NCBI GenBank assembly: GCA_010093995.1
Contig: ML992501.1
Coordinates: forward strand, 2,421,320-2,485,319
Source: Elsinoe ampelina
Lineage: Eukaryota
Direction of reading: 5' to 3'
Length of the DNA stretch: 64,000 bases
A model generated the notes under the pieces. It was not told where the DNA came from and did not search any database. It saw only the letters and a program-made list of their open reading frames with translations. The position numbers were made by a program, and so were the translations under genes. The stretch's first letter is position 1; every line of letters starts with the position of its first letter. Positions 32,389 to 36,827 of this stretch are shown here, one piece after another.

Positions 32389-34502
32389 TCACAACTTTGC
32401 CCTGAGCTCTCTGCCCTGCCCAGCTTCAAAGAACTGCTTGACAACTTTTCGAGCATTGTCGACCACGGTCGCGTCCTCGACTGTCGCCGGCACGTTTACT
32501 TCCTTGTCAAAGTCGCCCTTGACACCATTGTCGAGCAGTTCACGCAGTACACGTCTCAGCGTCTTGCCCGACCGCGTTTTTGGTATCGTGCCTGGTGCAA
32601 CGATGATCCCTCCTAGTACTGCGATTCCACCAATCTGCTTTCGTATCCGTCCGTTGATGTCCTTGAGGAGATCAGGTGGTGAAAGTGTGTCCACGTTTGC
32701 TGACGAGGACGCGAATGCGAATGGCATATGCCCCTTTAAGTGGTCTGGTATGGGTACCACTGCCACCTCCGTGATGTCCGGATGCGACGATATGGCCTGC
32801 TCTATAGATCCTGTTCCTTGTCAGCGGCTGTCTTGCCATCACCAAGATGATTTCTACCTGTGCTCAAACGATGCGCCGCCACATTGATGATGTCGTCTGT
32901 CCTCGCCATGATGTGAACATATCCATCGTCATCTATGATACCAGCATCTCCTGTATCTAGCCATTTACCATTGAATCGCTTCAAATAGCTCTTGTAAAAT
33001 CTTTCCTCGTCATTCCATAATGTCACGAGACCGCTGGGTGCAAATGGAAGACCCAGAACGATGTTTCCAATCTCGCCGTCCTTGACCTCATCACCGTCGT
33101 CGTCGACTATCCGGATGTTGAATCCCGGCATGGGCTTTCCGGCACTGCCTGGCTTGATCTTGAACGGTGTAACCACCTCTCGACTAGTGGGGTCTTGCCC
33201 GACTGCTGGGAGCTGAGCAAGACCTGTCATGGGACTTCCACTCTCGGATGACCACCAGTTGTCGACCACATTCGCTCCCGGCGCGCAGTATTCTGACAGT
33301 AGATCCTGGTACATTGACACAATACATGGCTCGCTTCTCTCTCCCGCAAGAAACAATGCTCTCAATTTGCGAAGCCCACCTCTCTTCCCTCTCTTGCTGA
33401 ATAATTCGTTCTTCGGGTCCTCCTTCCTGATCGCTCTTAACGCTGTCGGTGCCGTAAACATCACATTGACCTTGTGCTCCTCGACCACTCTCCAAAACGT
33501 GTCCGCAGTCGGTAAAATCGGCTTGCCCTCGAAGAGCACCGTTGTCGCTCCAGCCAGGAGTGGTGCGTAGAGAATGTAGCAATGCCCCACAACCCATCCA
33601 ATGTCGCTTGCGCAGAACATGACGTCCCCAGGCTGTATCCCAAACAAGTACTTCATCGTAAAGTTCAATTGTACCGCATTCCCACCCACCTCCCTCAACA
33701 CCCCCTTCGGACTCCCCGTCGTCCCACTCGTATAAATAATATACAACGGATCATTCGCACCCGTCTCCACCGGCCCCGCCCTCAGTCCTCTATTCCTCGC
33801 ACTCTTCACCAACCTCTGCCAATTCCTCTCCCCGTCCTCCTTCCTCACCGGATCCCACCTCATCTCCTCCCTCTGCCACACCAACACCCTCCGCGGCTTA
33901 TGCCCACTCATCCCCACCGCCTCCTGCACCATCGGCCTATAGCTCAACGGGCCCTTATTCCCCTCAATCCCACAACTCGCCGTCAACACCGCCACCGCAC
34001 CACTCGCCTCGATGCGTTGCGCCAGACTCCCCGCCGAGAAACCCCCAAACACAACCGCGTGCACGGCCCCCAGTTGCGCGACCGCGAGGATCCCGACCAG
34101 CGCCGCCGGTATCATGGGCATGTACACCAGCACCACGTCCCCCTTTTTCACGCCCTCCTCGCGTAACACGCCGGCGAGAATGGCGACTTCGTCCTGCAGC
34201 TCGGCGTACGTGAGGGTTTCCTTGCGGCCGCTGACGGGGCTGTCCCAGATGATGGCCGGGCGGGAGCCGGCGCCCGACGCTACGTGGCGGTCGATGCAGT
34301 TGTAGGTCGTGGATAGGCGGCCGTCGGGGAACCATTGCCATGTTGGGTGCGTGGTGCCGGAGGGGAGGGTTTTGGTGGTTTCGCGGAGGATGGTGCGGGG
34401 TGGTTGGGTCCAGGTCAGTTGGGAGGCGGGGCCGGCCCAGAAGGTGGAGGGGGAGGTGATGGAGGCGGTGTAGGTGGCGTCTTGGGGGTGGGTGGGTGGC
34501 AT
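32389..34502 (-). CDS. Short-chain acyl-CoA synthetase (propionate-CoA ligase/ACSS3 type)
   Basis: YTSGTTGSPKG, SDIGWVVGH, DNWWSSE, DTGD and PKTRSGK motifs; intron 32811-32857. Confidence 0.92.
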
Positions 34503-34883
34503 TGTTGAGATGTGGAGGAGGAAGGAAGAGTTACATTGTGAGGTTATGAGGAGAGCAATGGATGCATTTATTGGCGAGACGTCATGGGTTTACCGAGCTC
34601 TGGGGTTGGAGCTGCTCGGGCTTGCGGAGAAGATTGTGGGGTTGATCGAAGCTCTCAGGGGTCAATTTGCTCGCCATGAAAACACCATGAAGAATCGACG
34701 ACGTCTTCGAAACATACAGATTTCGAGCAGCCCTTTAGCTGAAGCATCATGGTCAAAAAAGAAGTTGTCGTCCTAGTTTGAGGACTAATCAACTTCCATT
34801 ATCGCCGACAGTTCTGGGTTATGCCAAGAAGTCTGCCAGGTCGTGGAGTGGTACGAAAAATTCTCAGACATTTATCCAAATGC

Positions 34884-34889
34884 AAAAAA
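34884..34889 (-). terminator. Pol III-type T6 terminator of the tRNA gene
   Basis: TTTTTT on the minus strand, 4 nt after the discriminator base. Confidence 0.7.
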
Positions 34890-34893
34890 TGGC

Positions 34894-35026
34894 CGACTAG
34901 CATGGGAGTCGAACCCACAACCTTCCGCTGCCATCGTAGGAGGCGGACGCGCTACCATTGCGCCAACCTTTGAAAGGAGTCAGGACTAGGAACCGCGAGC
35001 AAAGCGGGAAATGTCACTTACCAGCC
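34894..35026 (-). tRNA. tRNA-Arg(CCT) split by a 54-nt GT-AG intron in the acceptor stem (34968-35021) and a 7-nt intron at position 37/38 (34930-34936)
   Basis: Spliced sequence: GGCTG|GT TG GCGC AATGGTA GCGC G TCCGC CT CCT A|A GCGGA AGGTT GTGGG TTCGACT CCCAT GCTAGTC G. All four stems pair, and the A and B boxes are intact. Confidence 0.85.
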
Positions 35027-35524
35027 ACACATTGAAAAAACATCGGATTGAACCAAGTTTCGTAACTCAGCCGAGCGCATGCTGTTATATAATGTCATAG
35101 ACAAAAAAAGCCGCTTCGAGAGCAAATTCGGAAGACCTGAGTCGATCTTTCCAAGTGGTCTGCCAGATCAGTTCTGCAAAAATAGACAATTCCTACCAGC
35201 AGGAGCTACATGAGATGCTTAGCCACCCTCAAAAGGTGCCTTATAGTGTGCATCTTCCACGGGCATGGATCATTGAACCACCATCGATCCGATAGTCCAC
35301 TGTCTTCTTGGGAGACCAGTGCCACTTCATTCCCGAGAGTCAAGCCAGATAGAGCTTTTCAATACTATCCCAGTAGAAACCTTTAAACTCGTCTTACGTA
35401 CCTACATATCTCTGCATTCTAGGCTTACGCCCCCGTGGAATCAATCTTTCATCAAGTGCTAATCTTCGGCTACCGTCTACAGGACGCCATGGAATGACTT
35501 CGAGTCATCTTCCGCGATGACACC

Positions 35525-36627
35525 CTATGGTCCTCTCTGAGTCCCTCCCTGTGTTCCTCCCTGTGTTCCTCCCTGTGTTCCTCCCTGTGTTCCTCCCTGT
35601 GTTCCTCCCTGTGTTCCTCCCTGTGTTCCTCCCTGTGTNNNNNNNNNNNNNNNNNNNNNNNNNNNNNNNNNNNNNNNNNNNNNNNNNNNNNNNNNNNNNN
35701 NNNNNNNNNNNNNNNNNNNNNNNNNNNNNNNNNNNNNNCCTGTGTTCCTCCCTGTGTTCCTCCCTGTGTTCCTCCCTGTGTTCCTCCCTGTGTTCCTCCC
35801 TGTGTTCCTCCCTGTGTTCCTCCCTGTGTTCCTTCCTGTGTTCCTCCCTGTGTTCCTCCCTGTGTTCCTCCTTGTGCACCTTGTCCCCGAGGAGGCCCCC
35901 TTTGAGTGCCTCCAAATTTGCGTCTGCCGAATGACCCTCCCGGAGGATCGATGAGCTTCCCGCTTGGGTCACCAGTGTAAAGTGGGATCTGCCCTTCGTA
36001 ACGTAGCTTTGAAAACACTTCATGGGGTTCCAGACCCTTCAGATCCGAATACAATGTCTTCAACGATGTAGCCACAACTTGTGACCAACCGAGATAAGCG
36101 CCCCTCTCAGCTATGCTCTCGCTCCAATATCCATCCACAGCTTTGACTACAACCGCTTCCGAGCCTATGATGAGGTCCCAATTCTCCATGGTCGCCTCGG
36201 GAGACTCCAGTATCGAGGTCAGACTTTCTTCGTCAATCACAAGACATACCGCATTGCTGAACATAGTAGGAAGCTCCGGATCATCATGCTCGTCAACCCA
36301 TGCTCGGAACTTGTCCCGCACAGTAGCTTCGACAATATGGTCCAGCGTTTGTTCGTCTTGTTGTACGTGTAGATCGAGCTTTTCTTCGATAATTTGTTCT
36401 GGTTCGGGGTCTAGAGAAGGGTCTAAATGGCGGCTACGCTTGAAGGTGATCACCATAAGTGTTCGAAGCTTATTGATTGCTTCTTGCCATCTTGCGTCCG
36501 ATTCAGGCGTATACACTGTCCGATAGACCACGTAGCCCCATCTCTTCCCCCGGCGTTGTAGTTGGGACTCTTTAATAAACCTGACGCTGGGTCGATTTTC
36601 TGACCACCAGGCGGGGATGCTTGCCAT
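35525..36627 (-). CDS. Hypothetical fungal protein with a C-terminal (GGTQ)n repeat; spans an assembly gap
   Basis: WGYVVYRTVY...W and CLVIDEESL.SI motifs. Keeping the GGTQ frame across the 100-N gap ends ...GGTQRGP* at 35525. Confidence 0.7.
35546..35870. repeat. 12-bp coding minisatellite (CCCTGTGTTCCT)n with an unsized gap at 35639-35738
   Basis: Near-perfect 12-mers on both sides of the N run. Confidence 0.95.
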
Positions 36628-36827
36628 GGACTCAGTCGTATAGATTGCTATGCGACAAGATGCGTTGACGTGAAGTATAGTTGCACCGTGAAGATTTTGA
36701 CTCCAATTTGTAGTGCGAGAGCACGGTGTGGTTTGTTGATGCCAACTGTGCAGGACGCCTTGCCGCCTCCCAAGCCGATAATTTCCCTCGGTACCAGAAT
36801 TCCTTCATGGTCATTTCTCAGCTCGAC

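Follow-up and report, generated by a model that had tools for sequence, protein, structure and literature searches.

A tRNA-Arg(CCT) gene of Elsinoe ampelina carries in its acceptor stem a 54-nt insert with the marks of a spliceosomal intron

The window analyzed in this study is a 64-kb stretch (64,000 nt) of contig ML992501.1 of Elsinoe ampelina. On its minus strand, at 34894-35026, lies a tRNA-Arg(CCT) gene whose 5' acceptor strand is split by a 54-nt insert. The elements of the gene are as follows.

35022-35026, minus strand: exon 1, GGCTG, tRNA positions 1-5; identical to positions 1-5 of the metagenomic relative L002 and pairing with positions 68-72
34968-35021, minus strand: 54-nt insert with spliceosomal-intron signals; read directly, its removal leading to an ARAGORN call
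34894-34967, minus strand: exon 2, tRNA positions 6-73 (D, anticodon and T arms, GCTAGTC, discriminator G); Rfam match of 37.5 bits and ARAGORN cloverleaf
34955-34965, minus strand: box A, TGGCGCAATGG; read directly
34938-34940, minus strand: anticodon CCT (Arg, reads AGG); Rfam and ARAGORN
34930-34936, minus strand: canonical 37/38 tRNA intron of 7 nt, CGATGGC; ARAGORN and the intron-less relative L001
34905-34915, minus strand: box B, GGTTCGACTCC; read directly
34884-34889, minus strand: T6 terminator of Pol III, 4 nt past the discriminator (GCCA between); read directly and by a terminator scan

Exon 2 opens with GT and continues with U8 and the complete tRNA body up to the discriminator G at 34894. 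The two internal promoter boxes are those that we take to be boxes A and B from their consensus; together with the T-run terminator, they complete the set of Pol III type 2 elements. A scan for bacterial-type promoters and terminators, which is irrelevant to a eukaryote, re-found only the T arm and the T6 run. The tRNA lies about 390 nt upstream of the first ATG (near 34505) of the downstream gene (32802-34589, minus strand), which encodes an AMP-binding acyl/acetyl-CoA synthetase-like protein according to a protein search. Upstream, the tandem GGTQ and HREE repeats of an open frame at 35470-36804 (minus strand) are broken by a stretch of N, shown as X in translation. In both X3 and X5, which come from two studies, the RNA-type contigs end at 35842, a stop that is probably due to this repeat or gap.

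The first-pass annotation had described a tRNA-Arg(CCT) with an interrupted acceptor stem that tRNA scanners would miss, and both statements held. The Rfam tRNA model (RF00005) matched 34902-34965 on the minus strand with 37.5 bits (gathering score 29); the match covered only model positions 8-63 of 71, and thus the acceptor stem lay outside it. ARAGORN found no tRNA in the 64-kb window and none in the unspliced 181-nt piece, whereas the comparison of spliced and unspliced sequence suggested in that annotation gave a clear difference: after scripted removal of 34968-35021, a tRNA-Arg(cct) with a 7-nt anticodon-loop intron was called. Counted back from U8, the unspliced gene offers no uninterrupted acceptor stem of 7 bp. 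Signs of decay were not found, as every stem is paired in the sequence without the insert and the body is conserved in three metagenomic relatives.

Read 5' to 3' on the minus strand, the region consists of TATATAA, a T6 run, CAATGTGT, GGCTG, the insert (GTAAGT, then CTGAC, ending in TTTCAAAG), and finally GT with the tRNA body. The marks of the insert are listed below.

35016-35021, minus strand: donor GTAAGT, preceded by G and agreeing with the 5' splice site GTRNGT; read directly
34979-34983, minus strand: branch-site-like CTGAC, agreeing with CTRAC, whose A (34980) precedes the insert's 3' end by 12 nt; read directly
34968-34970, minus strand: acceptor AAG, the first AG past the branch site; read directly
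35020-35022 and 34966-34968, minus strand: upstream and second copy of a GGT direct repeat; read directly

The length of 54 nt, the GTAAGT donor, the branch A 12 nt from the end and the AAG acceptor are all as first annotated. So is the likeness to local spliceosomal introns: the one RNA-validated intron nearby (32810-32856, minus strand; GTAGAA, CTGAC, CAG), which is skipped in the X3 and X5 contigs, shares CTGAC and measures 47 nt. Both the CTGAC and the size class of the insert fit local intron usage as judged from this single intron. It had also been stated that the insert contains no run of four or more T, and this is true; it is uninformative, however, since 80 of 86 intron-like segments in the window, a crude and unvalidated set, likewise have none. 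We therefore discarded the absence of T runs as a sign of Pol III compatibility. A feature not described before is the GGT repeat at the two ends of the insert. Because of this repeat, the boundary is ambiguous over four registers that all give one product, and the DNA contains an unbroken GGCTGGT; the insert can be placed at 5/6 or, equivalently, anywhere up to 7/8. The insert is almost certainly intron-derived.

Recomputation of the acceptor stem gave the same result as the earlier annotation: the unspliced CAAAGGT forms three mismatches with GCTAGTC, whereas GGCTGGT pairs fully with it (four Watson-Crick and three G-U pairs). The spliced junction made in silico reads GGCTG followed directly by GTTGGCGC. 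To judge these features against chance, we used a first-order Markov model to produce 200,000 upstream sequences of 259 nt each and tried deletions of 30-200 nt. Full pairing (Watson-Crick or G-U) was restored by some deletion in 149,601 of the 200,000, and thus restored pairing by itself is not significant; the real sequence also has a second pairing-restoring deletion, at 100 nt. Pairing together with a GT start occurred in 15,927 sequences, pairing with GT and AG ends in 1,187, and pairing with GTRNGT and AG in 37, the position of CTGAC 12 nt from the end not being part of this count. These numbers bear on the idea that the 54 nt are some other insertion, or filler left by break repair at GGT microhomologies, which came to look like an intron by accident and left a dead gene. 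The ease of pairing would suit such an event, the GGT at both ends fits microhomology-mediated repair, and the insert had no further copy in the 64-kb window (best other match 13 nt; a weak test for a multi-copy introner). The frequency of 37 in 200,000, however, is reached before the CTGAC distance or the match of GGCTG to relatives is counted, and we consider an accident of this kind improbable. Still harder to accept is an artefact of assembly, which we regard as exceedingly unlikely: X1 and X2 (possibly the source sample) contain the full stretch, and X3, from a different sample and study, contains 34732-35042 with one changed letter.

The original 5' end of the gene can be read from its relatives. 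The 29 nt of the tRNA body from U8 to A37, a query picked to avoid acceptor-stem bias, were searched against metagenomes and yielded three loci (L001, L002 and L003; L001 and L003 are apparently the same sequence), none of them a close ortholog; the same query had no match in genome contigs. ARAGORN called tRNA-Arg(cct) in all three. Their 29-nt 5' body is identical to that of the present gene, and in the 3' half there is a single difference, in the T loop. Each has an uninterrupted 5' strand, pairing as GGTTGTT/GATGATC at two loci and as GGCTGTT/GATGGTC in L002, with GGYTG at positions 1-5 throughout. The pairs G1-C72, G2.U71, Y3-R70, G5.U68 and U7.G66 are common to the three relatives and the spliced stem, and G6-C67 here is a compensatory variant of their U6-A67. 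On this comparison, the three G-U pairs are a family trait rather than a weakness. The agreement of GGCTG at 35022-35026 with the uninterrupted strands of the relatives (GGCTGTT or GGTTGTT, G-U pairs at the same places) identifies it as the ancestral 5' end and the 54 nt as an insertion into it.

Folding of the unspliced 141-nt precursor (minimum free energy -41.8 kcal/mol) gave the acceptor, D, anticodon and T arms, the insert forming a domain of its own between positions 7 and 8. The 5' acceptor strand in this fold consists of GGCTG and the donor GT; the unspliced precursor can form the stem because the GGT repeat leaves GGCTGGT contiguous. Such a fold might suggest that the tRNA tolerates the insert as an additional arm at this place, or that the insert is removed without the spliceosome, by TSEN acting on a bulge-helix-bulge as in archaea or Cyanidioschyzon; tRNA introns at non-canonical positions are described for C. 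merolae (PMC3978253; PMC9602550). No bulge-helix-bulge was present at the insert junctions in either free or constrained folds, however: the acceptor helix encloses the 5' junction, and the 3' junction falls within an unpaired tail. We therefore rejected TSEN removal of the 54 nt from the acceptor stem after folding. Moreover, the GTAAGT, CTGAC and AG signals would be left unexplained, and both variants, removal and toleration, appear very unlikely.

Whether the gene can still be expressed depends on where its transcripts start. The elements and the contig that bear on this question are the following.

35035-35040, minus strand: T6 run, 8 nt upstream of exon 1; read directly, its role only presumed
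35085-35091, minus strand: TATATAA, 59-65 nt upstream of tRNA position 1; read directly, its role likewise presumed
34732-35042, strand not given: X3 contig (record 3), 311 nt, depth 4.37; unspliced from exon 1 through the insert and the tRNA, with both T6 runs included

In a functional tRNA gene, we expected transcription to start about 10-20 bp upstream of box A, with position 1 included. Position 1 in exon 1 is about 60-61 nt upstream of box A. The TFIIIC ruler sets the Pol III start by its distance from box A (PMC11724288), and with exon 1 displaced by about 60 nt the predicted start therefore falls inside the insert. Furthermore, given the T6 run at 35035-35040, a Pol III transcript containing exon 1 would be limited to starts within 35027-35034. 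TATATAA is too distant for a Pol III TATA at -30; it is a possible Pol II-type promoter element.

The public runs used here are not recorded as RNA, and X3 was treated as RNA-type since its contig skips the 47-nt intron at 32810-32856. Its contig across the tRNA was the sole RNA-type contig at the locus. Coverage by X3 was absent from the flanking 34488-34731 and 35043-35841, which makes pervasive DNA carry-over unlikely. Pol III should stop at T6 tracts, and a contig running through both of them thus looks like a transcript of another polymerase. X5 and X6, which bear the same species label, had no coverage over 34614-35821 and are uninformative. The first-pass annotation had proposed maturation through the spliceosome. 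No spliced product was seen among these contigs, which show the dominant form only, and the X3 contig keeps the insert. The unspliced contig neither proves nor excludes splicing, because contigs represent the dominant form and a spliced molecule, soon cleaved by RNase P and RNase Z, would drop out of long-RNA libraries.

A functional gene would thus be one from which the spliceosome removes the 54 nt, the first nuclear tRNA with a working spliceosomal intron. Its precursor would start at 35027-35034 if made by Pol III or, more plausibly, near 35042 or upstream from a Pol II-type start with TATATAA at 35085-35091. The spliceosome would cut between GGCTG and GT, RNase P and RNase Z would release the tRNA, and TSEN would take out the 7-nt intron at 37/38. 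The full set of intron signals, the return of a family-typical acceptor stem on removal, and the intact tRNA body, boxes A and B and terminator all speak for it, and so does the X3 contig, whose course from exon 1 through the insert and the tRNA and across both T6 runs suggests a polymerase other than Pol III. As the unspliced precursor can already form an acceptor stem through the GGT repeat, end processing need not await splicing, and fungal U6, U1, U2, U5, U3 and rRNA genes offer precedents (PMC5855946; PMC5832005). Set against this are the absence of a spliced junction in the only contig across the locus, the low depth of that contig (4.37) together with its lack of strand information, and the distance of about 60 bp between exon 1 and box A, which is contrary to the TFIIIC ruler (PMC11724288). 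The ortholog in X4 is probably intron-free and gives no sign of conservation. There is also the acceptor itself, AAG. The usual 3' splice site is YAG. On balance, we regard a working, spliced tRNA gene as plausible but somewhat less likely than a crippled one.

The evidence on the age of the insert comes from X4, a relative in which all nine aligned pieces are less than 95% identical to the window. A 1,058-nt contig of X4 (record 9) carries both 34567-34632, the upstream region of the downstream gene, and 34890-34968; the tRNA is therefore syntenic with that gene. The distance between the tRNA and this upstream region is about 679 nt in X4 vs 258 nt here, and the rest of the intergenic sequence is unalignable at 85%. 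Within 34890-34968 there are two changed letters and one gap, the differences shown (at 34930 and an insertion behind 34932) being located in the 7-nt intron. The alignment includes the G at 34968 and excludes the A at 34969 that an AG acceptor requires, and a contiguous GGCTGGT in X4 would give exactly this end. Where the alignment stops, one base before the acceptor A, thus hints at an X4 ortholog that is intron-free at this site and at an insert that is probably young and lineage-specific. The expectation that orthologs would conserve donor, branch site and acceptor received no support, the X4 ortholog probably being without the intron. Another X4 contig contains a different, uninterrupted tRNA-Arg-like gene with the 5' strand GGCCGTT, which may belong to another organism.

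Taken together, the unspliced X3 contig and the hint of intron absence in X4 make an inactivated gene at least as likely as a spliced one. Our preferred reading, with a probability of roughly one half, is that a spliceosomal-type intron was recently inserted and probably crippled the gene, leaving a young and undecayed tRNA pseudogene that bears an intron. According to this reading, a syntenic and otherwise intact tRNA-Arg(CCT) gene would have gained the 54-nt intron in its acceptor stem, probably recently in this lineage. The intron might have entered by way of RNA, reverse-spliced into a Pol II-type transcript that was longer than the tRNA, extended across it and was then copied back to DNA, or at the DNA level as an intron-like element with a 3-nt duplication. 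With exon 1 shifted to about 60 bp upstream of box A, TFIIIC would direct Pol III to a start inside the insert, and the resulting 5'-truncated RNA would be unable to pair with GCTAGTC. Function as a Pol III gene would presumably be lost, and the unspliced RNA would be a by-product of read-through or upstream transcription.

Several observations favor a recently crippled gene. First, GTAAGT, CTGAC 12 nt from the end and AG are all present, in a combination with pairing that is at most as frequent as the 37 in 200,000 random upstream sequences. Second, the ancestral 5' end is contiguous in all three metagenomic loci with the identical 29-nt body, and the X4 alignment of 34890-34968, ending one base before the acceptor A, fits a young age. 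Third, X3 contains spliced RNA, with the 47-nt intron skipped, yet keeps the insert at this locus. Finally, redundancy is plausible in view of the second tRNA-Arg-like gene (GGCCGTT) in X4, if it is not another organism's. On the other hand, the tRNA body has not decayed: the 29 nt are identical, one T-loop base is changed and G6-C67 is compensatory. An insert that arrived by reverse splicing should also be spliceable in the forward direction, and since a transcript-like contig covers exon 1 and the whole tRNA, a spliceable precursor may exist, the spliced form of which would leave long-RNA libraries while contigs show the dominant form. The young age, too, is read from the end of one alignment.

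In a literature search that included full texts, with most subscription journals outside its coverage, no tRNA gene with a spliceosomal intron came to light. The U1, U2 and U5 snRNA genes and the U3 genes are Pol II genes in fungi. Spliceosomal introns occur in these three snRNA genes, in the Pol III gene U6 and in ascomycete rRNA genes (PMC5855946), and in fungal U3 snoRNA genes (PMC5832005). The closest parallel is U6, for instance that of Schizosaccharomyces pombe, which is likewise a small, normally Pol III-transcribed non-coding RNA gene with a spliceosomal-type intron; many U6 introns look like species-specific insertions (PMC5855946). Here, however, a tRNA gene is the host, the internal promoter is displaced from the 5' exon by an insert located upstream of box A, and splicing is putative. 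In addition, U6 sits at the catalytic center of the spliceosome, unlike a tRNA, and this explains reverse splicing into U6. The introns of U1, U2, U5, U3 and ascomycete rRNA genes resemble the present insert as GT-AG introns in fungal structural RNA genes and are often lineage-specific (PMC5855946 and PMC5832005, where Bhattacharya 2000 and Canzler 2016 are cited); none of these genes is a tRNA gene.

Canonical nuclear tRNA introns lie at 37/38 and are handled by TSEN and tRNA ligase. The present gene has one such intron of its own, the 7 nt at 34930-34936, whereas the 54-nt insert is located in the acceptor stem, has GT-AG ends and a branch motif, and lacks a bulge-helix-bulge. The non-canonical, multiple or permuted tRNA genes of C. 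merolae and archaea are also interrupted outside 37/38 and missed by scanners; in contrast with the spliceosomal signals found here, their introns rely on bulge-helix-bulge motifs and the tRNA endonuclease (PMC3978253). The insert also has something in common with introner-like elements of fungi and algae, which are non-coding, newly inserted and shorter than 200 nt and, in fungi, are possibly transposed by the spliceosome (PMC11146597): it is short, and its direct repeat resembles a target duplication. Those elements were described in protein-coding genes, however, and here the 64-kb window holds no second copy.

The meaning of the locus depends on its fate. If the insert is spliced, tRNA supply would be tied to the spliceosome, two unrelated eukaryotic splicing machineries would act on one 73-nt RNA, and tRNA precursors that are Pol II-derived or unusually initiated would be implied. 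It would also reveal a blind spot of tRNAscan- and ARAGORN-type annotation, and fungal genomes may contain more such genes. A dead gene would still represent a young, datable intron gain outside mRNA, flanked by a 3-nt repeat and accompanied by an ortholog that apparently lacks the intron, and would bear on the route of intron insertion, that is, reverse splicing vs a DNA-level event.

Two smaller observations concern the surroundings of the exons. The 7-nt intron at 34930-34936 was missing from the first-pass annotation; L001, which has no intron and the loop CTCCTAA (ending in CCTAA), fixes A38 and thereby the position at 37/38. At this site, L001 and L003 have no intron, L002 has one of about 32-34 nt, the X4 ortholog apparently one of 8 nt and the present gene one of 7 nt; as far as these sequences tell, the site evolves fast and the exons stay fixed. 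Upstream of exon 1, TTCAAT (within 35027-35040, minus strand) is found 5-10 nt before position 1 and resembles TTCAAAAT before position 1 of L001; it may be a retained ancestral context of the Pol III start.
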